Assembly: GCA_963724765.1 (NCBI GenBank) | Contig: CAVRVY010000003.1 | Coordinates: 1,536,001-1,600,000, forward strand | Length of the DNA: 64,000 nt | Direction: 5' to 3' | From: an uncultured delta proteobacterium | Lineage (GTDB): Bacteria > Desulfobacterota > Binatia > Binatales > Binataceae | In this document: positions 3,934 through 19,036 of the stretch, piece by piece | How the letters are laid out: every line of letters begins with the position of its first letter | How positions within the stretch are numbered: position 1 is the first letter of the stretch | Notes under the pieces: model-generated | Seen by the model: only the letters and a program-made list of their open reading frames with translations | The model's database searches: none | What the model was told of the DNA's origin: nothing | Made by a program: the position numbers and the translations under genes

Positions 3934-5513
3934 CGGCGTTGCGCGGCCTCGGCATGCTGCTGGGCCGGATTGGCCGGCGTTTGCTTCGCATCGGCGGGCG
4001 AGGCGTGATTGAATCCGGCCACGCCCGGTTGGCCAGGTTGGTCGGCCTGGTCGGCTTGATCGGTCTGGTCTGGCTGGTCGGGCCGGTCGGGTCGGTCGGG
4101 TCGGTCTTGGGCGCGCGCAGCGTCGGCCAGCGGAATCGACAGCCTGAACTCGGTGCCGGTCCCGGCCTTGCTCTGGACCTCGATTCGGCCGCTATGGGCG
4201 TCCATCACTTTCTTCGCGATACCCATCCCGAGTCCGGTGCCGTTTTTCTTGGTGGTATAGAACGGATTGAAAATCTTCGGCAGCTTGTCTTCGGCGATAC
4301 CGCATCCGTTGTCGCGGATCACCACGGTGGCCGTGCCCGGATGGAGGCTTACGATTCCGAATTCCAGGCGCCGCTCGCCCGCGTTCGATTCCATCGCATC
4401 GATCGCGTTGTCGATGACGTTGGTGAAGACCTGGCGCAGCTTGTCGGCGTCAGCGCGGACCGTCGGCCCCCCGATATAGTTGCGCGACACGCTGACCTGG
4501 TTGGCTTCGAGCTTGGCGCGCATCTCCGTGAGCGCGTGGTCGAGCACCGACGCCAGCCCCACGTTTTCGAAACGGTAGTCGGTTTCCTTGGCATACTTGA
4601 GCAGATGAGAGACGCTGCGTTCGACCCGCTCGAGTTCGTCGAGCGCCACTTTGGCGTACTCCACGTTCTCGTTTGAGATCGGATCCTCGCCCATCTGCTG
4701 CACCAGGCTTTTCGCCGCGGCGATGGGATTGCGGATTTCATGTGCGAAGCTGGCGGTAAGCTCATCCAGCGAGGCCTGCTTCTCGGTGCGCAGGGCCTCC
4801 TTCTCGCGCGTGACCTCGCGTTGTACCTCGCGTTGGACGGCGGGTTCGAACACGCGCTCGTGGATCCAGCGCCATCCGTATACGCCGCCGAAATGGCTGG
4901 CGAGCCCGATACCCCATCCGACCGCCGGGAAGATCCACCATTCGAACGAGGGGCTGACGACAAGATTCACAATCAGCATCGATCCGATGACGATCCCGTA
5001 CCACATCAGGTGAACATAAAAGCCGGCCTCGCGCGCGGCGCGCCGGCGGGCGCGCTTGTAGGCCTTGACGTCCTCGTCGCTATCGGGCTGCGATTGGCGG
5101 TCCTGCTTGAACTCACCGCGTCGGTCGGGTCCAGGCGTCCCGCGCGATTGCGAAGCCGCGGCGCCGCCGGGAGCCGCCGTGCCGCCGCGAAGCCTCTCGG
5201 CCTCGCGCCGTAGCTTTGCTTCCGCCATTTCGAGCTTGCTCGCGACCTTGTGCCCGACGTCGGCGGCCTGATGCCGCACGTCGTGGGCCCAGCGCTCCCA
5301 ATCCTGCCACTGGCGGGTCCACTTATCCCACTTGTCGTTTCCGGCTAGCCCGCTCTGGTGGGCGCGGCCGGCTTCGCTCTTGGCGTCTTCGCTGGACTGC
5401 ATTCGTTCCCATCGGCGCGACCACTTGTCGCACTTATCCCCGCTATAGATTCGCCGGTACTTACGCCGTTGGAAGAGGGCGAAAATTATGATCAGTGCAA
5501 TGAGGAAACCCAT
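3930..5513 (-). CDS. Sensor histidine kinase with a 2TM-like membrane domain
   Basis: H-box FAHEIRNP, N-box [10 protein letters not shown]-boxes DNGCGI and GTGLGM. The segment GFYVHLMWY...[16 protein letters not shown] resembles the 2TM domain. Stop overlaps the regulator start. Confidence 0.9.
4025..4106 (-). repeat. 9-bp degenerate tandem repeat encoding DRP/DQP/DQA tripeptides in the kinase C-tail
   Basis: Translates as [28 protein letters not shown]. Confidence 0.8.
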
Positions 5514-9889: not shown

Positions 9890-10106
9890 GCCGCGTACAT
9901 AAGTGTCTTTCGTTATTCTCTCCCCTGTGTTTTGGGGGAGCAGGTCAGAAAGTGCTCAACCAGTGATTCGCGAAGTTTCGTGTGCGTAAAGCAATCGGGG
10001 GGGGTCGAGAGGTCTAAGGCCTCGCCTTGCGGCGCTTAATTCTCTGTATTACAGCGTGACTACTGGTCTCCGTTTTTCGATCTCCACTTTTTTGGAGCGA
10101 CACGAC

Positions 10107-11357
10107 ATGCATGACAAAGACAACGGGCACAACACGCGCAGTACAAATGACGGCGGTCTGCTCTCCGGACTTCGGGTGATCGACTGCGGAACCTACGTTG
10201 CCGGCCCAGCGGCCGCCACGATCATGTCCGACTTCGGCGCCGAGGTGATCAAAATCGAGCGCCCCGGTGGCGGCGACCTGTGGCGGCTTTTTTCGAAGCT
10301 CCCCGGCACGGCCAAGTCCGAACTCGATTGGTGCTGGGTCCTCACCAGCCGCAACAAGAAAAGTGTCGCGCTGGATCTGGGACGGCCCGAAGGACGCGAA
10401 GCGCTGCTTCGCCTGGTGGGCACGGCGGATGTCTTCCTCACCAACTACCAGAGAACGCTGCTCGAGAAATTCCACCTGACTTGGGAGGACCTTGCGCCTG
10501 TCAACGACCGGCTAGTCTACGCGCACCTGACCGGCTACGGTGACGCGGGCGACGACGCAGATGACCCGGCGTTCGACGCGCTGGCGTACTGGGCACGCTC
10601 GGGTCTGATGACGAGCGTGACGGGGATCGACGGTTCGCCCAGCGGACCTCGGCCGGGGATGGGCGATCATCCAACCTCGATGTCGCTGTTCGGGGCGATC
10701 ATGCTGGGCCTTTACCGGCGCGAGCGCACCGGGCGCGGATCCAGGGTTAGTACATCTTTGCTGGCGAGCGGGGCGTGGGCCAACGCGTGCGACATTCAGG
10801 CCAAGCTCTTGAACGCGAAATTTCCCGAGCGCGGCGAGGGCAAGCATCCACCCAACCCGCTCACGGCTGTGTACCTCAGCCACGACGGCAAGATGTTTCT
10901 CCTCGTGCTAATCGATCCGGACAACGAGTTTCCGCGCCTGTGCCAAGCTTTCGGCCAGCCTGAACTCGGCACGGGCGAGTTGTTTGGAAGCAACGCCGAC
11001 CGCGATCAAAACGCGGCGGCGCTGTATGCAATCCTGCAGTCGCAGTTCGAATCGCGCGACCTGGCGGAGTGGAAAACGATCTTCAAATGCAACGACATCA
11101 AATGGGCGCCGCTGCCCAGGCTCGACGACGTCGTGCAGGATCCCCAGATGCGCGCGGCCGAGGCGTTCGTGAAGATGGATTATCCCGGGGCCGGTGTGCT
11201 GGAGACGGTGAACAGCCCGCTTTTCGTCTCCGGCGTGGAAAAACGGAAGCCCACGGCGGCGGCGGAGGTCGGCGCGCACACGCGCGAGGTACTGCAGGAA
11301 CTCGGGTATAGCGCGGAGGCAATCGAATCGATAGTGCGCGATGGCGCTCGGCGCTAG
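10107..11357 (+). CDS. CaiB/BaiF (class III) CoA-transferase
   Basis: LSGLRVID...AGP...DFGAEVIKIERPGGGD, RNKKSVALDL, catalytic Asp in GMGDH; GGAG RBS before ATG 10107. Confidence 0.92.
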   Translation: MHDKDNGHNTRSTNDGGLLSGLRVIDCGTYVAGPAAATIMSDFGAEVIKIERPGGGDLWRLFSKLPGTAKSELDWCWVLTSRNKKSVALDLGRPEGREALLRLVGTADVFLTNYQRTLLEKFHLTWEDLAPVNDRLVYAHLTGYGDAGDDADDPAFDALAYWARSGLMTSVTGIDGSPSGPRPGMGDHPTSMSLFGAIMLGLYRRERTGRGSRVSTSLLASGAWANACDIQAKLLNAKFPERGEGKHPPNPLTAVYLSHDGKMFLLVLIDPDNEFPRLCQAFGQPELGTGELFGSNADRDQNAAALYAILQSQFESRDLAEWKTIFKCNDIKWAPLPRLDDVVQDPQMRAAEAFVKMDYPGAGVLETVNSPLFVSGVEKRKPTAAAEVGAHTREVLQELGYSAEAIESIVRDGARR

Positions 11358-11507
11358 GGCAAAATCGTCGCGGTGACGCCATTACCGCCGCGGACGATAG
11401 TGGGATAAGCTGGAAGGTAGGTTTCTCGGCAACTGAGGAACGTAAAGGCTAAGCGAAAGCACAGCGATTCCTTCGCACAAGATCGCTAAAGGAGCGGAAA
11501 AGATAAG

Positions 11508-12860
11508 ATGCATTTCATGTGGTTTACGGAACGGGCGTACCATTATGATCCTGAGGTCGACCCGGCCAAGTATCATGCGCTGGAGAATCAGATCGTTGGA
11601 CTGCGCAGCTTCTTCAACACCCCCAACCGTTTTTTCGAGCGCGAGCACGGAGCGAAACTGCTCAACCAATACCTCGACGAGAAGATTTACACGGACTCCG
11701 AGCTGATGAGCTTCGACGGCGTGATGCTCAACGAGCATCATGGCACGCCGTTTTGCCTCGGTGCCGTGATGGATGTCGAAGCTTCCATCCTCGCCAAGAC
11801 CACCAAGCGGCTGAAGATGGTCCTGCTCGGCAATCCCGTCGCCACCGTCGCCAATCCGCTGCGCCTGGCGGAAGAACTGGCGATGATCGATCTCATCTCG
11901 GGCGGACGCCTGGTCTCCGGATGGGTGCGCGGCGCCGGTTCCGAGCAGTTCGCCAACAACACCAACCCGGCGCTCAACCGCGAACTGTTCGAGGAAGGCG
12001 TCGATTTCATCGTCAAGGCGTGGACCACGCCGGGCCCATTTCGCTACGAGGGCAAGCACTACAACTTCCGCAACGTGAACCCCTGGGTGCTGCCGCTGCA
12101 ACGGCCGCATCCGCCGTTCTGGATCCCGGGCCTGGTGAGTCCCGACACCGCCTTTTGGTGCGCCCGCAAGCGCTATCCGTACGTCGCCCTGGCCACGAGG
12201 CTGCAGCCGACGCTGGAGCTCTGGGACTTCTATGCGAAGGCGGCTGCGCAGGAGGGTTATCAGGCGGGGCCGGAGAATTTCGGCTACTTGCAGCCGGTGG
12301 TGGTGGCCGATACGCAGGAGCGAGCGGAGGAACTGGGCAAACGGATTCTTTTCGGCGGCGCCTTTGCGCACTTTGCTCGGCCGGAATGGATGTTCCCTCC
12401 GGGATACAATTCCAAGGCCGCAACCAAGCGTCTGGCCGAGTCGAATTTCGGCGCCAACGCCGCGGCCAAGTCGCTTTACGGCGAGGGCGGCAACAACGAG
12501 TCCGAAGAACAGATCGAAGCCGTCAAGAAACACATCTATGACGGCTATCCGGACGTCCTGAAGGACTACGTAATGATCGCCGGCACGCCTGACAACGTGA
12601 TTCCCAAGCTCAATAAAGTGCTCGACGTCCTGCGCCCGGGCATCTTTTCGTTCTGGCTCGACGGACCGGTCCCGGCCAAGGACCGGATGCGATGCCTGGA
12701 ATTGCTCAACCGCGACGTGATTCCGGCCATGCGCGACTACGGCAAGACGATCGGATTGGTCGATCCATTCCAGCGCGCTCCGGGTTCGCGCCCGTTGCGT
12801 CCGGGGGTTGCACCAGAGCCGGTGAGCAATGCCGACGCGCTCGCGTCGATGACGGCCTGA
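11508..12860 (+). CDS. Luciferase-like (LLM class) flavin-dependent oxidoreductase
   Basis: LNEHH, NPLRLAEELAMIDLISGGRL, PLQRPHPP; AAGGAG upstream. Confidence 0.9.
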   Translation: MHFMWFTERAYHYDPEVDPAKYHALENQIVGLRSFFNTPNRFFEREHGAKLLNQYLDEKIYTDSELMSFDGVMLNEHHGTPFCLGAVMDVEASILAKTTKRLKMVLLGNPVATVANPLRLAEELAMIDLISGGRLVSGWVRGAGSEQFANNTNPALNRELFEEGVDFIVKAWTTPGPFRYEGKHYNFRNVNPWVLPLQRPHPPFWIPGLVSPDTAFWCARKRYPYVALATRLQPTLELWDFYAKAAAQEGYQAGPENFGYLQPVVVADTQERAEELGKRILFGGAFAHFARPEWMFPPGYNSKAATKRLAESNFGANAAAKSLYGEGGNNESEEQIEAVKKHIYDGYPDVLKDYVMIAGTPDNVIPKLNKVLDVLRPGIFSFWLDGPVPAKDRMRCLELLNRDVIPAMRDYGKTIGLVDPFQRAPGSRPLRPGVAPEPVSNADALASMTA

Positions 12861-13061: not shown

Positions 13062-13862
13062 ATGAGCTCTTCGGAAGAGGTGGCGGCCGGGCGTGCTCCT
13101 ACTGACTGGCTCGTCGGCTGGAAAACTCTATTTGTCGCATGCGGCCTGCTAATGGCCTGCAACGTTTTCCTTTGGGTCTGGGATTACAACTACGCGTTTA
13201 CGGCGGGACTTGATTCCTCGAGCCGCGCCTTCACGCTTCACTACCGCACGCTGTTCTGGGGTGAGCTGCTGAGCGTGGGGGCATTTGCCGGCCTGTGGTA
13301 CGGATGGCTGATGCGGACCGGCCGCAGTCTCGTGGGCGAGGCGGTGGCGCCCGCCGAAGAGGTGCGGCGCGTTGTGGTGCTGTGGGGAATTATCGGAGTT
13401 ACCAGCCTCTCGATCTACATCGAGGCGAGCTTCTGGCCCAACTGGGACGGCGCGTGGCATCAGACGATGGTGCGCGATACCGCGCTCACCCCGACCCACA
13501 TTCCGATGTTCTACTTCTTCTTCCCGATGTCGGTGGTGCTGGCCCTGGGAGCGTACCTGTACGGGCGCTTTCGGATTCCCGCGGTCTACGGCGGCGAGAA
13601 GGGATTCCCGTGGTCTTTCTTTTTGTTGATCGCGGCCGCGGTTCTCGAATTCGTGGAGGTCGCCTTCAACGAATGGGGTCACAGTCTCTGGATGTCAGAG
13701 GAATTCTTCTCGGTGCCCTTCCATTGGCCTTTTGTCATTTATGGATGGCTGGCGGGTGGGATGTTCGCGGTGTGGGGCGAAACCATCCTCTATCTCTTCC
13801 AGATAGAAAAGAGGGCGCGAGCGGTGGAAGAACTCCCGACCCATACGGCTGCCGCCGGCTAA
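13062..13862 (+). CDS. xmoC: Copper membrane monooxygenase subunit C (PmoC/AmoC family)
   Basis: DGAWHQTMVRDTALTPTH (CuC Asp/His/His) and NEWGH-x13-H (CuD Asn/His/His); multiple TM helices. Confidence 0.95.
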   Translation: MSSSEEVAAGRAPTDWLVGWKTLFVACGLLMACNVFLWVWDYNYAFTAGLDSSSRAFTLHYRTLFWGELLSVGAFAGLWYGWLMRTGRSLVGEAVAPAEEVRRVVVLWGIIGVTSLSIYIEASFWPNWDGAWHQTMVRDTALTPTHIPMFYFFFPMSVVLALGAYLYGRFRIPAVYGGEKGFPWSFFLLIAAAVLEFVEVAFNEWGHSLWMSEEFFSVPFHWPFVIYGWLAGGMFAVWGETILYLFQIEKRARAVEELPTHTAAAG

Positions 13863-13911: not shown

Positions 13912-14709
13912 ATGGCGACAGCACCATCGTTAGCCGCAGCCGCGGCGGCCGAGAAGCAACGCAGGCTCGCGCTGCGCGACCTGCTCAACGCGAAATATCA
14001 ATGGATCGATCGCACCTGGGACGCGGTCTTCTGGATCACGGCCATCTTCGTCGTTGCCGGGGCGGCGGACATCACGCGGCTGCTGTTCGCCGGCGATTGG
14101 GATTTCTGGACTGATTGGAAAGATCCGCAATGGTGGCCGGTGGTGACCGCCTTCGCCACCATCATCATTCCTTCCGCACTCCAATACATTCAGTGGGCCG
14201 CCTGGCGGTTCCCCACCGGCGCGACGTACACGTGCGTGTGCCTTTTCATGGCCTCGTGGATCGGGCGCTACTTCCAATGGCACGTGGCCGAAAGCTATCC
14301 AATGAACTTCATATGGCCGATATCGACGATTCCGGCGGCCATAATTCTTGACTGGCTATTGATGAGAACGAAAAGTTTCGTACTGACATCGCTTTTCGGC
14401 GGAGGGATTTGGGCCGTGATGGTGTGGAGCTTCAACTATATCCCGCTCGCGCCATTCCTTCAGCCGATGCAATTCATGCATCACATTCTCACGGTTGCCG
14501 ACGTCCAGGGCATCGTTTACATCCGCACCCAGACGCCCGAATACATGCGGCATATTGAACGCGGCGCGCTGCGCAGCTTTCTCGGCGAGACCCAGTACGT
14601 GTCGCTGCTGTTTGGCGGCACGATGGCGATGGTCGGTTATTGGATCGGCCAGTTCATCGGGCGATACCTCGCCGTGTGGCCGATTGGCAGATACATCAAG
14701 ACCGTCTGA
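13912..14709 (+). CDS. xmoA: Copper membrane monooxygenase subunit A (PmoA/AmoA family)
   Basis: AGDWDFWTDWKDPQWWPVVT, RFPTGAT, YPMNFIWP, YIRTQTPEYMRHIERGALRSF. Confidence 0.96.
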   Translation: MATAPSLAAAAAAEKQRRLALRDLLNAKYQWIDRTWDAVFWITAIFVVAGAADITRLLFAGDWDFWTDWKDPQWWPVVTAFATIIIPSALQYIQWAAWRFPTGATYTCVCLFMASWIGRYFQWHVAESYPMNFIWPISTIPAAIILDWLLMRTKSFVLTSLFGGGIWAVMVWSFNYIPLAPFLQPMQFMHHILTVADVQGIVYIRTQTPEYMRHIERGALRSFLGETQYVSLLFGGTMAMVGYWIGQFIGRYLAVWPIGRYIKTV

Positions 14710-14728
14710 GCGAGGCGCGGGCACAGCG

Positions 14729-14965
14729 ATGCGAACCGTCTTTCGTTGCTTACGCGCCGTCGTGGTCGCGCTCCTGTGGACCAGCGTATTTGCCGCCAGC
14801 GCCTATGCGCATGGTGGAATCGCCGGGCCCGACGAGCTTGGCCCGCCGGTAATCACCTCGGCCGTGCTCGGCATCGGTGGCTACTGGTTGATGTTGCTGT
14901 GGCCGTCGCGCCGCCGTCCGGTGGTCAGCAAAAAAAACAAGCCGATGCGTAACGTGATGAAGTAG
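14729..14965 (+). CDS. 78-aa membrane-anchored mini-protein between xmoA and xmoB, predicted mature N-terminus HGG
   Basis: Signal peptide ending SAYA|HGGIAGPDELGPP, then one TM helix and a basic tail. It fills the A-B gap (19 nt after xmoA, 42 nt before xmoB). Confidence 0.75.
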   Translation: MRTVFRCLRAVVVALLWTSVFAASAYAHGGIAGPDELGPPVITSAVLGIGGYWLMLLWPSRRRPVVSKKNKPMRNVMK

Positions 14966-15007: not shown

Positions 15008-16258
15008 ATGCGAATGCGATTTCCGGCTGTTCTGTCAGCGGCTCTCTTCCTGCTCACAGCATCCTATGCGCCACGCGCTTTCGCGCACGGCGAAGCGGCG
15101 GACGAGCCGTTCCTCAAGGATCTCACCGTCGCCTTCTATGACGTGCACATCTCGCCTACCACGATCAAAGTAGGTGAGCCGGTCACGATCACTGGAGCGG
15201 TGAAAATTCTCGAGACCTGGCCATATACGCTCGATCCGCCGCAAACCGCGTACATCACGCCGGTCGTTCCGGGCCCGGTCTTCGCGCTCATCAACCGGGA
15301 GATTAATGGGACCGCGGCGCCGGGCTCGATCCTGGTCGACAAGGGCGGCACTTATCATTTCAAAATGGTGATCGAGGGGCGCGACCCCGGAAACTGGCAC
15401 GTGCATCCGGGAATCGCTATACAGGGCACCGGGACTCTCATCGGCCCGGGCGAGTGGGTCACGGTTGAGCGGGGGGCCGCGCCCTTCAAAATGGACGTGA
15501 CGCTGCTCACTGGCCAAACCGTCAATCTGGAGCATTACGGCGGCAGTTTCGTATGGTGGTGGTCATTCGCCGGGTTCCTGATCGGCATGATCTGGATGAT
15601 CTATTGGACCGTTCCCAAACGTACCGTTACCCGTCTCGCGGTGACCACACAAATACCGGTCAACGACGACGCTCCCGACATCGGACTCATCACCCCGCGC
15701 GACCACATGTGGATGGACGTGCTCGCCGGTGCGACGATCGCGATGCTGGTCGTCGGCTGGATCTACATGGCAGTGAAGTTTCCCGTGCGGTTGCCGCAGC
15801 AGACGGTGCGCTTTGCGCCCGAGGTCATCGATTCCACCACTCATTCGGTCCAGGTGATGAAAGCCGATTCCACCTACGACGATCGGACCGATACGCTGTT
15901 GATAAACCTCGCGGTCAGGAATACCGGGACCGTTGCGTTAAGCCTGAAGCAATACATCATGGCGATGGCCACGTTCGTCAATGGCGACAAGAAAGAACAG
16001 GAAAAGGCCGGACCGGCGCACTACGTCGGGCGCATGCAGGTCGAGCCCGACGCTCCGATCGAGCCCGGACAGACCGCGAAGGTGCAATTGAAGATAAGTA
16101 GTCCGCTGTTCGATGAAGAGCGGCTCATCCCGCTGCACGACCCGCAGGAGCGTATCGCGGGGCTGCTGCGCTTTACCGGTCCGCAGGGTCACGAGGACCT
16201 GGTTACCCTGCATACCGATCTCGTGCCAACGGAGTTCCGCCCGCAGTATTTGCCTTAG
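15008..16258 (+). CDS. xmoB: Copper membrane monooxygenase subunit B (PmoB/AmoB family)
   Basis: Signal AFA|HGE, WHVHP (CuB His triad), GTLIGPGEWV, two central TMs, C-terminal cupredoxin-like domain (PIEPGQT...ERL...AGLLRF); GGAGG RBS. Confidence 0.96.
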   Translation: MRMRFPAVLSAALFLLTASYAPRAFAHGEAADEPFLKDLTVAFYDVHISPTTIKVGEPVTITGAVKILETWPYTLDPPQTAYITPVVPGPVFALINREINGTAAPGSILVDKGGTYHFKMVIEGRDPGNWHVHPGIAIQGTGTLIGPGEWVTVERGAAPFKMDVTLLTGQTVNLEHYGGSFVWWWSFAGFLIGMIWMIYWTVPKRTVTRLAVTTQIPVNDDAPDIGLITPRDHMWMDVLAGATIAMLVVGWIYMAVKFPVRLPQQTVRFAPEVIDSTTHSVQVMKADSTYDDRTDTLLINLAVRNTGTVALSLKQYIMAMATFVNGDKKEQEKAGPAHYVGRMQVEPDAPIEPGQTAKVQLKISSPLFDEERLIPLHDPQERIAGLLRFTGPQGHEDLVTLHTDLVPTEFRPQYLP

Positions 16259-16276: not shown

Positions 16277-16822
16277 GTGAAGATCAAGCGACGCGAGTTC
16301 CTGCACAAGAGCGCGCTGGTGGTCGCCGGCGTATCGGCAGCGGCCGCTGGTGTTACGGTCACCGGCTTTGCCGCCGAATGGACTTCGAAATTAAAGACCC
16401 TGAATGCACACGAGGCTGAAACGCTGCTCAAGATGGCGCGGCAGATCTTCCCGCACGACCGCCTCGGCGATAGCTACTATATAAAAGTAGTTGATGACCT
16501 CGATGCGGAGGCGGCAAGCAAGCCCGCCACCGCCAGAATGATAAGCGCAGGAGTAGCTAATCTGGATCATTTGGCGAAAGGCGAATTTGCCGCCCAACCC
16601 GCCAGCGATCAAATCGCCGCGCTCAAGAAAATTCAGCATACGCCGTTTTTCGAGAAGGTCCGCAGCACCGAGCTGGTTTCGCTGTACAATAACGAGGACG
16701 TTTGGAAGGTCTTCGGCTACCAGGGCGCCTCCTACCGTTTCGGCGGTTACCTGCATCACGGCTTCAACGACCTGAATTGGCTGCCGGAACCACCCGAAGC
16801 GGCAAGCCCGAAACCGGGCTGA
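16277..16822 (+). CDS. Tat-exported small (gamma/hitchhiker) subunit of a GMC dehydrogenase, gluconate 2-dehydrogenase subunit 3-like
   Basis: Twin-arginine KRREFL signal, IFPHD, LYNNEDVWKVFGYQG...GGYLHHGFNDLNWLP; GAGGAG RBS 18 nt after xmoB. Confidence 0.85.
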   Translation: MKIKRREFLHKSALVVAGVSAAAAGVTVTGFAAEWTSKLKTLNAHEAETLLKMARQIFPHDRLGDSYYIKVVDDLDAEAASKPATARMISAGVANLDHLAKGEFAAQPASDQIAALKKIQHTPFFEKVRSTELVSLYNNEDVWKVFGYQGASYRFGGYLHHGFNDLNWLPEPPEAASPKPG

Positions 16823-16837
16823 ACGGAGAGTTGCATC

Positions 16838-18406
16838 GTGGCTCGATTCGATTCGAATGACGATTCCGTCGTGGTAATCATCGGTTCGGGAGCGGGCGGA
16901 GGCACGCTGGCGAACGAGCTCTGTCACAAGGGCTTCAAGGTGGTGATGCTCGAGGCGGGGCAGCGTCAGTCGCCGCAGACCTTTCACAACGACGAGTGGT
17001 TCGCATTCAAGCAACTAGCCTGGCTCGATAAGCGCACCACCTCGGGGACCTGGCGGGTAGCGAAGGACTTCCCCAACCTGCCGGCCTGGACCTGCAAGAC
17101 GGTTGGTGGAACGACCGTGCACTGGGCGGGCGCGTCGTTGCGCTTTCAGGAGCACGAATTCAAGACCAAGACCACCTATTCAAGTGTCAGCGGTGCGAAC
17201 CTTCTCGACTGGCCGATAAGCCTCGCGGAATTGGCGCCTTACTACGCCAAGGCCGAGGATAAGATGGGCGTGACGCGGACTAATGATATTCCGGGACTCC
17301 CGGGGAATAACAATTTCAAGGTAATGTATAATGGTGCCACGCGTGTAGGGTATAAGACTGTGCACACCGGGCGCATGGCGATTAATAGCCGGCCCCGCGA
17401 CCGCCGTTCGTCCTGCTGGCAACTCGGATTTTGTTTCCAGGGCTGCAAGTCGGGAGCGAAGTGGTCAACTCTCTACACCGAAATTCCGAAGGCCGAGTCC
17501 ACTGGTAAGCTCGATTTGCGGCCCGGGTCCTACGCGCTCCAGATTCAGCATGACGCCAATGGCAAAGCGACCGGCGTGCTGTACGCCGATAAGGACGGCA
17601 AACATGTCGTGCAGAAGGCGCGCATCGTGTGCGTGGCCTGCAATTCGATCGAAAGCGCGCGGCTCCTGCTCAACTCGGCCTCGTCCACGTTCCCGCACGG
17701 GCTCGCCAATTCATCCGGCCAGGTCGGCAGAAACTACATGCGGCATACGACCGGCTCCGTCTACGCCATTTTCGACAAGCCGGTCCATATGTATCGTGGT
17801 ACCGTGATGGCCGGAATCATCACCGACGAAGCCGAGTTGAATACCAAGCGCGGGTTTGCCGGCGGTTTCGAGATGGAGACCATCTCGCTCGGACTGCCGT
17901 TCGCGGCCGCGTTCCTGGATCCGGGAGCCTGGGGACGCGACTATTCGAGCATGCTTGAGCAGTATCCCAACATGGCTGGGTTGTGGATCGTGGGCGAGGA
18001 CATGCCGCAGGCGACCAACGCCGTGACGCTCCATCCGACGGTAAAGGACCAGTGGGGTCTCCCGATTCCGAACGTGCACTACGACGATCATCCCAACGAC
18101 GTCGCCATGCGCAACTACGGATACAAGCAGGGCGCTGCGGTGTACAATGCCGTTGGGGCGATCAAGACCATCGCGGTCCCGCCGTATCCTTCGACGCATA
18201 ACCTGGGCACGTGCCGTATGAGCGAGCGCCCCGGCGACGGCGTCTGCAATAAGTGGGGCCAGACTCACGACGTGAAAAATCTGTTCATTTCCGACGGCAG
18301 CCAGTTCACGTCCAGTGGGGGCGAGAATCCCACGCTCACGATCGTCAGCCTGGCCATCAGGCAAGCCGATCGCATCGCCGCCGAGAGTGCGAAGCGGAAC
18401 CTCTAG
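16838..18406 (+). CDS. GMC family FAD oxidoreductase, catalytic subunit with a C-x5-C-x3-C motif
   Basis: IIGSGAGG, VGGTTVHWAG, CWQLGFCFQGC, GQVGRNYMRH, HNLGTCRM, ENPTLTI; no signal peptide of its own. Confidence 0.93.
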   Translation: MARFDSNDDSVVVIIGSGAGGGTLANELCHKGFKVVMLEAGQRQSPQTFHNDEWFAFKQLAWLDKRTTSGTWRVAKDFPNLPAWTCKTVGGTTVHWAGASLRFQEHEFKTKTTYSSVSGANLLDWPISLAELAPYYAKAEDKMGVTRTNDIPGLPGNNNFKVMYNGATRVGYKTVHTGRMAINSRPRDRRSSCWQLGFCFQGCKSGAKWSTLYTEIPKAESTGKLDLRPGSYALQIQHDANGKATGVLYADKDGKHVVQKARIVCVACNSIESARLLLNSASSTFPHGLANSSGQVGRNYMRHTTGSVYAIFDKPVHMYRGTVMAGIITDEAELNTKRGFAGGFEMETISLGLPFAAAFLDPGAWGRDYSSMLEQYPNMAGLWIVGEDMPQATNAVTLHPTVKDQWGLPIPNVHYDDHPNDVAMRNYGYKQGAAVYNAVGAIKTIAVPPYPSTHNLGTCRMSERPGDGVCNKWGQTHDVKNLFISDGSQFTSSGGENPTLTIVSLAIRQADRIAAESAKRNL

Positions 18407-18418
18407 CGGAAGCTCCAG

Positions 18419-19036
18419 ATGACGCGGCGCGTTTTCGGATTTCGCAGCGGCGCGTCGGCAGTTTGGATCGCCTCAGCGGCGATACTCATGCTGGCGCTTC
18501 CGTTCGCGGCGCGGGCTGAACTCGGCAAAGCCGCGGCGCGGGCGGTGGCGAGTCCTGCCGACGGCCTGCCAAAAGTAAGTCTTACAGACCAGAATGGCAG
18601 AGCGATCTCGCTTTCGTCATTGAAGGGCAAGCCGGCACTGGTCGCTTTTATCCACACCTCGTGCGAAGGGCCCTGCGAGCTGATCACTGCCGAGATGAAG
18701 TCGGTCGCGCGGAGCCTGGGGCCCAGCTTCAGGTCCGAAGTCACGATGGTCTCGATCACTACGGACCCCAAGGAGGACGGATCGCGCGAGCTGCTTGCCT
18801 ATGCCAAGGCGCAAGGAGTGGACGCCGACGGATGGGTGTTCCTGACCGGCGCGCCCGCAAAGATTCGCCGGCTCCTGGCCCTTTACGGCGTCTCGGCTGA
18901 AGACGACGACTCGGCCCACGTCCTGGAGCTGTTTCTGCTCAGCGCCGACGGCGTTGGATTACGCCGTTACAATGGTCTCGCGACACGTCCGGAAACGATC
19001 GCCTCGGATATCAGGAAAACCGTCTCGCTTCATTAG
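18419..19036 (+). CDS. SCO1/SenC family copper chaperone
   Basis: LTDQNG, FIHTSCEGPC (CxxxC), SITTDPKED, WVFLTG, conserved His (SAHV); N-terminal signal/anchor. Confidence 0.9.
   Translation: MTRRVFGFRSGASAVWIASAAILMLALPFAARAELGKAAARAVASPADGLPKVSLTDQNGRAISLSSLKGKPALVAFIHTSCEGPCELITAEMKSVARSLGPSFRSEVTMVSITTDPKEDGSRELLAYAKAQGVDADGWVFLTGAPAKIRRLLALYGVSAEDDDSAHVLELFLLSADGVGLRRYNGLATRPETIASDIRKTVSLH

Follow-up and report, generated by a model that had tools for sequence, protein, structure and literature searches.

The xmoCAB operon of an uncultured member of the Binatia raises the question of what a protein of only 78 amino acids, encoded between xmoA and xmoB, contributes to an enzyme of the CuMMO family. 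CuMMOs (pMMO, AMO and the hydrocarbon monooxygenases) drive the oxidation of methane, ammonia and short alkanes. Open problems in the field include their copper sites, the way they assemble and their poor yields in heterologous hosts, and recent cryo-EM has found small extra subunits, of unknown role, in each CuMMO lineage.

Supernumerary transmembrane (TM) helices are present in pMMO and AMO, and native Methylococcus pMMO shows an unassigned membrane-anchored density that reaches CuB (PMC11725843). AMO of Nitrosomonas halophila contains AmoD and AmoE (PMC12804982), and archaeal AMO contains further subunits (bioRxiv 10.64898/2026.08.31.748207). The gene studied here is the "x" of the CAxB and CAxxB operons of Binatota (Murphy et al. 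2021, PMC8262859), and the amoX/pmoX gene in the C-A-X-B order of Ca. Angelarchaeales occupies the same position (Diamond et al. 2022, PMC9038741), a likeness of position only. The available portions of these two papers do not describe sequence features of the x genes. In the literature searched the gene appears only as "x, hypothetical protein"; supplements to these two papers may list such genes.

The original prediction read the small protein as a membrane-anchored peptide with a free N-terminal His, acting as a tethered copper carrier or as a fourth CuMMO subunit replacing PmoD. We report here the conservation, anatomy and variants of this protein, its relation to the enzyme encoded beside it, and the explanations that these observations favour.

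Results

A conserved gene between xmoA and xmoB

The window, that is the whole stretch of DNA analysed (64,000 nucleotides), contains the following operon and neighbouring genes.

13062..13862, + strand: xmoC, CuMMO subunit C (266 aa; Pfam AmoC, E 3.1e-44; NCBIfam agrees)
13912..14709, + strand: xmoA, CuMMO subunit A (265 aa; Pfam AMO, E 3.5e-59; the only PF02461 match in its own genome)
14712..14715, + strand: GAGG, read from the sequence, a putative Shine-Dalgarno element 13 nt 5' of the mini-gene ATG
14729..14965, + strand: mini-gene (78 aa and stop; ORF call, single copy in its own genome, homologue searches)
15008..16258, + strand: xmoB (416 aa; Pfam Monooxygenase_B, E 8e-83), with a signal peptide ending A-F-A|H27
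16277..16822, + strand: 181-aa protein, presumed small partner of the next gene (PF10399, a TAT-signal model, E 0.0072, under the curated cut-off; relative in 39 of 80 loci)
16838..18406, + strand: GMC-family FAD oxidoreductase (522 aa; GMC_oxred_N and GMC_oxred_C; 37 of 80 loci), candidate for the alcohol-oxidising step
18419..19036, + strand: SCO1/SenC-family copper chaperone or thiol-disulfide protein (205 aa; PF02630, E 5.1e-19; 30 of 80 loci)

The mini-gene was found as predicted, with its ATG at 14729, xmoA before it and xmoB after it, and hidden, as had also been noted, in a longer mechanical ORF (14495..14965, TTG start, 156 aa) that overlaps xmoA in another frame. This long form is not conserved, because in 49 of the 79 relatives its reading frame can extend no further than 30 nt into xmoA. 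The genome itself has one CuMMO operon and one copy of the mini-gene.

The related loci came from a sample of 80 nearest relatives picked by XmoA similarity alone, with 281 further XmoA matches outside the sample. In all but one of these 80 Binatia loci (79) the mini-gene is found between xmoA and xmoB, and in the exception (L052) the contig ends about 100 nt past xmoA. Frameshifts or truncations affect just three of the 79 copies (L003, L009 and L024); in L003 and L024 XmoB likewise matches only in part, so that their defects look like assembly errors. In 13 of 78 loci the 3' end of the mini-gene overlaps the aligned start of XmoB by 8 nt. Homologue searches returned 151 proteins at E <= 0.01, and at E <= 0.001 the family comprised 94 clusters at 50% identity, including three long proteins of 714-2063 aa. 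With the window as reference and 76 intact loci, dN/dS of the mini-gene was 0.21-0.44 (13 unsaturated pairs among the 14 listed), compared with 0.018-0.075 for xmoA and 0.078-0.227 for xmoB. The mini-gene is a real protein-coding gene of soil Binatia, under purifying selection.

Pfam and NCBIfam models gave no family match for the mini-protein. In the protein atlas its own Binatota cluster stood alone at 0.94, all others being at 0.84 or below and serving as leads only. A listing of sequencing runs gave 20 DNA runs with all or part of the operon and no RNA run.

Anatomy of the mini-protein

The protein divides into regions that differ in mean entropy in the family alignment.

14729..14809, + strand: residues 1-27, signal-peptide-like, with an n-region (1-9) of net charge +3 and an uncharged stretch (10-27) ending A-Y-A; 2.08 bits
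14810..14812, + strand: codon CAT for the invariant His28, predicted to be residue 1 of the mature protein or, with cleavage after Ala25, residue 3 (family alignment)
14810..14848, + strand: residues 28-40, predicted periplasmic head H-G-G-x4-D-E...P-P, net charge -2; 0.69 bits, the most conserved part
14849..14905, + strand: residues 41-59, Gly-rich, aromatic-ended TM helix with Y52, W53, W58 and P59 nearly invariant; 1.19 bits
14906..14962, + strand: residues 60-78, basic tail predicted to be cytoplasmic, net charge +8; 2.39 bits, length and sequence varying among relatives

Features matching the signal peptide, TM helix and basic tail noted earlier are all present at the level of residues, and the signal region and the tail are the least conserved parts. 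Segment 41-59, with a 15-residue Kyte-Doolittle mean of 1.45-1.59, is the one hydrophobic segment after the signal region, as in a small single-pass membrane protein. A helix that is marginally hydrophobic, rich in Gly and conserved suggests specific helix packing over a passive anchor.

Conservation of the His among relatives, on which the original prediction depended, was complete wherever it could be scored: of 210 family sequences 204 have His28, and the six misses are truncated or deleted, leaving 204/204 that cover the column. A27, H28, P40, W58 and P59 are invariant in 76 diverse members, P40 being kept in 209/209. Acidic residues are conserved at +8 and +9 from the His (+8 is D in 149 and E in 32 of 204). 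The mature protein, of about 51 aa, has a single His, His28, and no Cys.

Candidate cleavage sites and copper ligands

The cleavage site was judged by the -3/-1 rule only. At the A-x-A|H site, position -1 is Ala in 203 of 204 sequences, and position -3 is Ala in 187, Val in 10 and Gly in 3 (200/204). The same maturation pattern, as had been pointed out, is found in XmoB (A-F-A|H-G-E), where all 52 sequences compared keep A26, H27, G28 and E29. However, another A-x-A site, which lies two residues upstream, shows nearly the same conservation (-5 small and -3 Ala in most of the 204), and cleavage there, after Ala25, would put the His at mature position 3, in an X-X-His N-terminus. The conserved site mirrors its XmoB counterpart, and with the rival site a free N-terminal His is one of two candidate N-termini. 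X-X-His (ATCUN-type) N-termini are a Cu(II) motif, and H-G-G is also a Cu(II)-binding unit of the prion octarepeat.

None of the 204 sequences has a second His within 13 residues of His28, which excludes a canonical bis-His brace, of the type found in PmoB CuB, CopC and LPMOs, within the peptide; at best, a mono-His brace with Asp/Glu would form its copper site. Other readings of the region were considered. That of a lipoprotein was rejected, there being no Cys after the signal region. An uncleaved two-TM hairpin was judged unlikely, given that conservation is poor over the first hydrophobic stretch and that the actinobacterial form described below lacks this stretch. As for PEP-CTERM or another C-terminal sorting signal, there was no NCBIfam match at E <= 0.01, and the tails of relatives run from 15 to about 80 residues past the basic cluster.

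Tandem copies, an XmoB fusion and a stand-alone paralogue

L078 and L081 each have a tandem pair of paralogues, the "CAxxB" order, with A-x-A|H, P-P and the aromatic...W-P end retained in both copies. Three clusters at 90% identity (1, 4 and 39 members) and locus L042 have the mini-protein fused in frame to XmoB, with PF04744 in the long part. Such a fusion is in keeping with an N-out, C-in topology and with 1:1 synthesis. PF02461 matches occurred in three of the 401 genomes of the phylum sample, the genome of the window included; they made no informative co-occurrence table, but through them genome G110 was found, which has a stand-alone mini-protein paralogue away from any CuMMO gene and a distant second CuMMO operon without the mini-gene. 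The tandem copies, the XmoB fusion, the stand-alone paralogue and the actinobacterial look-alike are new here.

A look-alike after hmoB in Actinobacteria

All four actinobacterial CuMMO plasmids have, directly 3' of xmoB, an ORF of 71-98 aa with L-A-H-G-G-x4-D-E, a Gly-rich TM segment and a basic cluster. These ORFs, annotated as hypothetical in Mycolicibacterium chubuense NBB4, Mycobacterium dioxanotrophicus and Rhodococcus spp., share with the mini-protein the motif and its spacing, the TM segment and the basic cluster, and, like the Binatia gene, they adjoin an xmoB from the same broad CuMMO clade. A-H-G-G-x4-D-E is invariant in 32 members of this family. The back-translated motif matched exactly once per actinobacterial plasmid (0.1-0.6 Mb), at the post-hmoB ORF, and twice in the 5.4-Mb genome of the window, one match being the mini-gene; reversed-pattern controls gave 0.

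On the other hand, the actinobacterial ORF comes after B and not between A and B, it lacks a signal peptide, with the motif 7-8 residues from the start and the His at position 8, and the profile similarity is not significant: hhalign of the two families aligned 12 columns (E 0.057, probability ~1%), and the Binatia profile search did not retrieve the actinobacterial proteins. If the two families are kin, the missing signal peptide implies that a shared function would be independent of a free His alpha-amine.

The enzyme and the modelled complex

The copper ligands of the enzyme itself are complete. In XmoC the CuC ligands D129, H133 and H146 and the CuD ligands H207 and H221 are conserved (invariant columns, 50 sequences), and in XmoB the CuB ligands H27, H131 and H133 are invariant, so that no ligand position of the enzyme is obviously vacant. 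A comparison of Binatia and four actinobacteria with two outgroups found no His, Cys or Met specific to the clade in XmoA, XmoB or XmoC. The positions differing in at least one of the two outgroups (R103, W108, Y165, W222, W238 and E240 of XmoC; W36, W135, W167, W172, E216 and K263 of XmoA) are too thin a set to interpret.

A complex of XmoC, XmoA, mature XmoB and mature mini-protein scored 0.49 against 0.29 for the best control, with contact agreement between runs of at least 59% and partner pLDDT of at least 58. The check proposed with the original prediction came out above its controls, but gives weak support for membership: of 80 solved complexes 58 passed the same mark, as did two of 110 mismatched pairs, and the passing scores of 0.60 or less came from just seven of the 80 solved complexes plus both of those mismatches. 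With XmoB replaced, the control still scored 0.29.

Discussion

Relation to known small subunits and copper proteins

The closest general parallel is with the supernumerary subunits of solved CuMMO structures. The 23-residue helix of Methylocystis sp. Rockwell pMMO, the Nitrosomonas 46-residue ORF/AmoD and archaeal AmoX/Y/Z are, like the mini-protein, small, lineage-specific, single-pass and CuMMO-associated, and those in solved structures adjoin subunit C (PMC11725843, PMC12804982, bioRxiv 10.64898/2026.08.31.748207). The differences are several. As far as the available parts of these reports go, bacterial supernumerary subunits are not placed inside a CAB operon, Nitrosomonas amoD lying beside TCA-cycle and signalling genes (PMC12804982), whereas the mini-gene sits between A and B. 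Likewise, these accounts report no signal peptide or conserved N-terminal His for the solved helices, in contrast to the invariant His head of the mini-protein, and the Nitrosomonas helix has the opposite orientation (PMC11725843). A search of the mini-protein profile against all PDB chains gave one match, to a kinesin-like protein (E 0.71), and none to a solved supernumerary subunit.

Among copper proteins, YcnI (DUF1775) of Bacillus subtilis is tethered by a TM segment and binds Cu(II) through a mono-His brace at its N-terminus, which a Glu completes (bioRxiv 10.1101/2021.06.11.448128). Like the mini-protein in its predicted form, it has a signal peptide followed by an N-terminal His and a C-terminal TM anchor, and it holds Cu(II) by His and a carboxylate. 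Its site, however, belongs to a cupredoxin-like fold (RMSD reported over 127 C-alpha) that has a conserved Trp, as opposed to an extracytoplasmic part of 13 residues. With so short a head and no Pfam match the mini-protein is not a DUF1775 member, although it may work like YcnI. PmoB/XmoB, with its CuB site, resembles the mini-protein where the signal peptide ends and the predicted mature part begins, A-[YF]-A|H-G, and MAFFT matched mini-proteins to the N-terminus of XmoB and not to the mini part of the natural fusion. The N-terminal His of PmoB binds copper by amine and imidazole (PMC11725843), and PmoB adds two His from its cupredoxin domain, where the mini-protein has none. PmoD/AmoD, like the mini-protein in its proposed role, is a periplasmic copper protein that CuMMO organisms anchor by a TM segment and associate with the operon (PMC13058606), but it has a soluble cupredoxin domain, Cys ligands and a dimeric form; the mature mini-protein would have about 51 aa and no Cys. 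The proposal that the mini-protein replaces PmoD was not supported, for it has no PmoD-like domain and pmoD is reported in 5 of 11 CuMMO-bearing Binatota genomes with CAxB/CAxxB operons (PMC8262859).

The preferred explanation and its rivals

The explanation that we favour, and to which we give about an even chance, is that the mini-protein is a lineage-specific supernumerary single-TM subunit, or a dedicated accessory, of an alkane-type CuMMO, presenting an invariant His and Asp/Glu, probably a copper ligand, at the periplasmic face of the membrane. Its position, the overlap with xmoB and the natural XmoB fusion tie the mini-gene to xmoCAB. A Sec-type signal peptide would direct the protein out of the cytoplasm, and cleavage either at the invariant His or two residues ahead of it would yield a type-I single-pass protein of about 51 residues with an acidic periplasmic H-G-G head of 13 residues, a TM helix and a basic cytoplasmic tail. 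Made together with XmoB, it would pack its conserved helix on the membrane domain of the enzyme, as the supernumerary helices of pMMO and of bacterial and archaeal AMO do, holding the His and the Asp/Glu seven to eight residues on at the periplasmic membrane surface. The head would then most likely act as a copper ligand set that hands copper to, or caps, a copper site in XmoB or XmoC. In this scheme signal cleavage, topology, stable complex membership and copper binding are all inferred. The real gene, its invariant His, the conserved A-x-A|H site and the link to the operon all fit the earlier idea of a fourth subunit or tethered carrier; the ligand sets already complete in XmoB and XmoC weaken it.

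Several observations stand against the reading as subunit or accessory: the stand-alone paralogue of G110 and its second operon without the mini-gene, the single His and lack of Cys, the complete ligand sets of XmoB and XmoC, the weak complex model, the actinobacterial look-alike without a signal peptide, and its 12-column hhalign alignment. The paralogue and the modelling would suit a transient membrane-tethered copper chaperone of the YcnI or CopC kind, which would capture periplasmic copper through a His1 mono-brace or X-X-His and pass it to XmoB/XmoC at assembly without being a stable subunit. This alternative, unlikely but with a substantial claim to attention, is also favoured by the invariant N-terminal His with its acidic residues at +8/+9, by a known N-terminal Cu(II) motif arising from either candidate cleavage, by the YcnI precedent, and by SCO1/SenC near the operon in 30 of 80 loci, which indicates a neighbourhood that deals in copper delivery. 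It does not readily account for a TM helix conserved beyond the need of a passive anchor, for the XmoB fusion, which imposes fixed 1:1 synthesis in one sub-lineage, for an actinobacterial form without a free His N-terminus, or for a 13-residue head without a fold to shield copper.

The completeness of the enzyme's own copper ligands, and the presence of the same motif internally in Actinobacteria, with no free amine, would be expected if the protein were purely a structural supernumerary helix or assembly factor, its head docking on XmoB or XmoC by contacts of backbone and side chains and its His being non-metal or merely near the enzyme's copper site. The known supernumerary helices of pMMO and AMO, with no metal role assigned in the accounts available, provide precedents, and the score of the XmoB-replaced control hints at membrane contacts with XmoC or XmoA. 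Yet the most conserved residues, a His beside two Gly and an Asp-Glu pair, have the flavour of metal binding and not of packing, and H-G-G binds Cu(II) in the prion octarepeat; we consider this alternative rather improbable. That there is no function at the protein level, the ORF being a chance product of the xmoA-xmoB spacer or a leader peptide coupling xmoB expression, might be suggested by its small size, lack of a family match and overlap with the xmoB start in some loci, but is extremely improbable given a dN/dS far under 1, invariant residues across 94 clusters at 50% identity and a motif kept in tandem and stand-alone paralogues.

Significance

In the literature searched, the mini-gene is the first candidate found that combines encoding within the operon, conservation throughout the clade and an invariant His head of a putative copper-binding type. 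A broader proposal, which goes beyond our preferred explanation of a subunit or accessory and which we regard as quite doubtful, is that alkane-type CuMMOs of two or more phyla, Binatia and Actinobacteria among them, include as a fourth integral part a family of tiny, operon-encoded peptides tethered to the membrane. Their A-H-G-G-x4-D-E head would extend from the membrane into a catalytic copper site or next to one, much like the membrane-anchored density at CuB of native Methylococcus pMMO, and would supply or exchange a ligand there. If it were true, part of the copper coordination or loading of CuMMOs would be encoded outside A, B and C, and this could help to explain why these enzymes are difficult to express in heterologous hosts. 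According to a review, the hmoCAB genes of Mycolicibacterium chubuense NBB4 encode the only CuMMO for which both heterologous expression and mutagenesis have been achieved (PMC13058606), and deletion and His-to-Ala tests are practical because a look-alike ORF sits in this strain. Such tests would inform both the copper loading of CuMMOs and the design of constructs for their expression.

The mini-gene and its operon

The gene under study is a 78-codon ORF between two subunit genes of a copper membrane monooxygenase (CuMMO). NCBIfam concurs on the three subunit genes as CuMMO, with scores below the equivalog cut-offs for AMO and pMMO. The features of the region are the following.

10056..12860, family III CoA-transferase and luciferase-like monooxygenase, upstream of xmoC
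13062..13862, + strand, xmoC (Pfam E 3e-44)
13912..14709, + strand, xmoA (Pfam E 3.5e-59)
14729..14965, + strand, mini-gene, ATG at 14729, 78 codons, between xmoA and xmoB
15008..16258, + strand, xmoB (Pfam E 8e-83)
16277..19036, + strand, 181-aa protein (weak TAT-signal match), GMC oxidoreductase and SCO1/SenC protein, downstream of xmoB

The genome carries one CuMMO operon with a single copy of the mini-gene, and we found no terminator-like site between xmoA and xmoB. As had been claimed, the mini-gene is hidden in a longer ORF, being listed only within a TTG-started ORF of 156 aa (14495..14965) that overlaps xmoA in another frame. This long form is not conserved: the frame is limited to at most 30 nt into xmoA in 49 of 79 related loci. 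The encoded mini-protein begins with an n-region of net charge +3 and an uncharged stretch ending in A-Y-A, followed by His28, a head of 13 residues (net charge -2), a Gly-rich, moderately hydrophobic segment (residues 41-59), and a tail of net charge +8. It has no match in Pfam or NCBIfam.

Conservation in relatives

The mini-gene is genuine, under selection and linked to this clade of CuMMOs. In a word-seeded search 151 homologues came up at E <= 0.01, all unnamed or "hypothetical", with Candidatus Binataceae as the source of the named ones. When a profile was run against all 1.84 billion representatives, 94 clusters (50% identity) matched at E <= 0.001, three of them long proteins, and 56 of the 94 reached E <= 1e-10. 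Of 80 loci picked solely by XmoA (identity 72-98%; all with Binatia-type MAG titles; 281 further matches lay outside the sample), 79 have the mini-gene between xmoA and xmoB, and in the sole exception (L052) the sequence stops about 100 nt past xmoA. Three copies (L003, L009, L024) are frameshifted or truncated; since the XmoB match is likewise partial in L003 and L024, the broken copies look like assembly errors. In 13 of 78 loci the 3' end of the mini-gene and the aligned start of XmoB share 8 nt. Compared with the window, in the 13 unsaturated of 14 pairs taken from 76 intact loci, dN/dS was 0.21-0.44 for the mini-gene, 0.018-0.075 for xmoA and 0.078-0.227 for xmoB. The ORF and the sequence features put forward in the original prediction are confirmed.

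Relatives of the 181-aa protein, the GMC oxidoreductase and the SCO1/SenC protein lie no more than about 4 kb from the operon, sometimes upstream, in 39, 37 and 30 of the 80 loci, respectively, and these three probably serve alcohol oxidation and copper handling. For the CoA-transferase and the luciferase-like monooxygenase, just 9 and 12 of the 80 loci, respectively, show such linkage.

The His head and the predicted cleavage site

Of 210 aligned family sequences, all under 260 aa, 204 have His28; among the other six, one has a deletion and the rest are gene calls beginning within the protein. Gly follows at +2 in 195 and at +3 in 186 of these 204, so that the expected H-G-G is indeed conserved in relatives, and an acidic pair stands at +8/+9. 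None of the 204 has a second His within 13 residues of His28, and a canonical histidine brace was rejected on this ground. The head is the most conserved part of the mini-protein, with a mean column entropy of 0.69 bits, followed by the TM segment (1.19), the signal region (2.08) and the tail (2.39). Residues A27, H28, P40, W58 and P59 are invariant over 76 deliberately diverse members, and G29, Y52 and W53 exceed 90%. In many loci (e.g. L067 4761..5132 and L053 4383..4841) long-tailed members carry, close to where their cytoplasmic tail ends, a conserved basic motif like K-P-R-L-R-[VK]-I-E, which the short-tailed mini-protein of the window lacks.

Of the 204 sequences, 193 show a signal-peptide layout, with K/R upstream and eight or more uncharged residues in a row. 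Ala occupies -1 in 203, and -3 holds Ala in 187, Val in 10, Gly and Leu in 3 each and Thr in 1; at -5 we counted Ala 104, Ser 51, Thr 19, Val 12 and Gly 7. The proposed A-x-A|H signal end therefore holds as a conserved -1/-3 pattern, but its exact site is ambiguous: because -5 and -3 are also small, a cut two residues earlier would fit the pattern just as well and put His at position 3 of the mature protein. XmoB matures alike, as proposed (A-F-A|H-G-E), with A26, H27, G28 and E29 invariant in 52 sequences. A PEP-CTERM-type signal was rejected, NCBIfam giving no match. The signal end and first residues of the mini-protein (14729..14830) are so close to those of XmoB (15008..15110) that MAFFT placed mini-proteins on the XmoB N-terminus, and the mini-gene may have originated when the 5' end of xmoB was partially duplicated.

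Duplicated, fused and stand-alone forms

The mini-gene is already in print as the "x" of Binatota CAxB operons, and the accessible text of the same paper, by Murphy et al., reports a "CAxxB" arrangement (PMC8262859). CAxxB is a tandem duplication of the mini-gene, seen between xmoA and xmoB in two loci from relatives, L078 (4847..5134 and 5151..5465) and L081 (4788..5075 and 5047..5361). All four copies keep the A-x-A|H, the P-P and the aromatic...W-P end, and with two His-headed peptides in each protomer a two-His site might, in principle, be built jointly.

One sub-lineage has the mini-gene and xmoB joined in a single reading frame, no stop intervening (L042 4754..6391). Fused forms of 455-540 aa also occur in three 90%-identity clusters (P0250, P0251 and P0252, with 1, 4 and 39 member sequences), each with PF04744. 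The tail of the mini-protein runs directly into the XmoB signal peptide, a layout topologically consistent with a mini-protein predicted to be N-out and C-in.

One relative of the same class (G110) has two CuMMO operons, the close one with the mini-gene and the distant one (XmoA 37.5% identical) without it. It also has a stand-alone divergent paralogue (L090 1480..1728, 82 aa, A|H-R-G type) among unrelated neighbours, far from both operons; its flanks, read by eye, are an aminopeptidase-like gene and a candidate methylenetetrahydrofolate reductase gene.

An actinobacterial look-alike

In the hmoCAB operons of four actinobacterial plasmids (Mycolicibacterium chubuense NBB4, Mycobacterium dioxanotrophicus and two Rhodococcus strains) the A-B gap is only 4-26 nt, and a "hypothetical" ORF of 71-98 aa stands directly after B. 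It starts M-x(4-5)-L-A-H-G-G-Q-x-T-x-D-E, after which come a TM helix rich in Gly and a cluster of basic residues, and no upstream frame able to supply a signal peptide was found. The 32 members of its family come from Mycobacteriales and one Nanopelagicales MAG, and L6, A7, H8, G9, G10, D15, E16, A18 and P31 are invariant among them. In two Mycobacteriaceae plasmids (L083 5822..6166; L085 5858..6205) a second single-TM ORF of about 115 aa, with no annotated function, overlaps its end.

The A-H-G-G-x4-D-E spacing is identical in the look-alike and the Binatia mini-protein. Profile-profile comparison aligns only the 12 motif columns (E 0.057, probability ~1%), so homology is not established. 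The back-translated motif gave 2 matches in the 5.4-Mb genome of the window, one being the mini-gene, and exactly one per plasmid, always at the look-alike ORF, with 0 for reversed-pattern controls; the other genomic match (L094, contig 4, 660504..660533, - strand) looks, by eye, like the Walker B segment of an AAA+ activator. As the motif was noticed before testing and the four plasmids are interrelated, its sharing is suggestive of a relation rather than proof.

Proposed role

The mini-protein would be exported by Sec, cleaved by signal peptidase, and fixed in type-I orientation by its +8 tail. Its helix, being conserved, Gly-rich and marginally hydrophobic, would pack specifically against other helices, and its place in the operon, the overlap with xmoB and the naturally fused forms all point to CuMMO itself as the partner. 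Modelling weakly supports its place in the complex: XmoC, XmoA, mature XmoB and mature mini-protein scored 0.49 against 0.29 for the best control. Of 80 solved complexes 58 pass the mark, as do 2 of 110 mismatched pairs; passing scores of 0.60 or less, however, come from just 7 of the 80 and from both of those mismatches. Runs gave at least 59% contact agreement and a partner pLDDT of at least 58. XmoC W222, W238 and E240 and XmoA W36 and W172 are invariant in Binatia and four actinobacterial enzymes and differ in both of the two outgroup CuMMOs compared, which makes them weak candidates for contacts.

The residues of the head (His, two Gly, Asp-Glu) are of the metal-binding kind. A cut before His28 could give a mono-His brace completed by a carboxylate, like YcnI, and the cut two residues earlier would give an X-X-His site. 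For the actinobacterial form, the possible ligands would be limited to the imidazole, the backbone amides and the carboxylates, the mode in which H-G-G binds Cu(II) in the prion octarepeat. Since the ligand sets of the enzyme are complete (XmoB H27, H131, H133; XmoC D129, H133, H146, H207, H221), a role in loading or capping a site is favoured over completing one.

Going by the accessible text of the reports, the mini-protein works most like the supernumerary single-TM subunits of pMMO/AMO (PMC11725843, PMC12804982, bioRxiv 10.64898/2026.08.31.748207), and perhaps like YcnI (bioRxiv 10.1101/2021.06.11.448128). Membership of those subunit families was rejected, a PDB profile search finding no relative, as was membership of the YcnI family (no DUF1775 match in Pfam). 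In native-membrane cryo-EM of Methylococcus pMMO, an unidentified membrane-anchored density is described reaching into the CuB site (PMC11725843, accessible text), so the enzyme family does include an arrangement of this kind. For Ca. Angelarchaeales, the accessible text of PMC9038741 reports the gene order C-A-X-B. In the main texts that the literature search covered, we did not find the sequence features of the mini-protein, its tandem and fused forms or the actinobacterial look-alike.

The original prediction proposed a minimal membrane-tethered copper carrier, or a fourth CuMMO subunit replacing PmoD. Replacement of PmoD is unsupported, and identity with PmoD was rejected, the mini-protein having neither a cupredoxin domain nor Cys. 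The partly supported reading is that of a small membrane protein that is dedicated to CuMMO as its partner and has a head that probably binds copper; we class the protein as a candidate supernumerary component of the enzyme. A practical genetic test is possible in the Mycolicibacterium/M. smegmatis system, which adds to the interest of the mini-protein.
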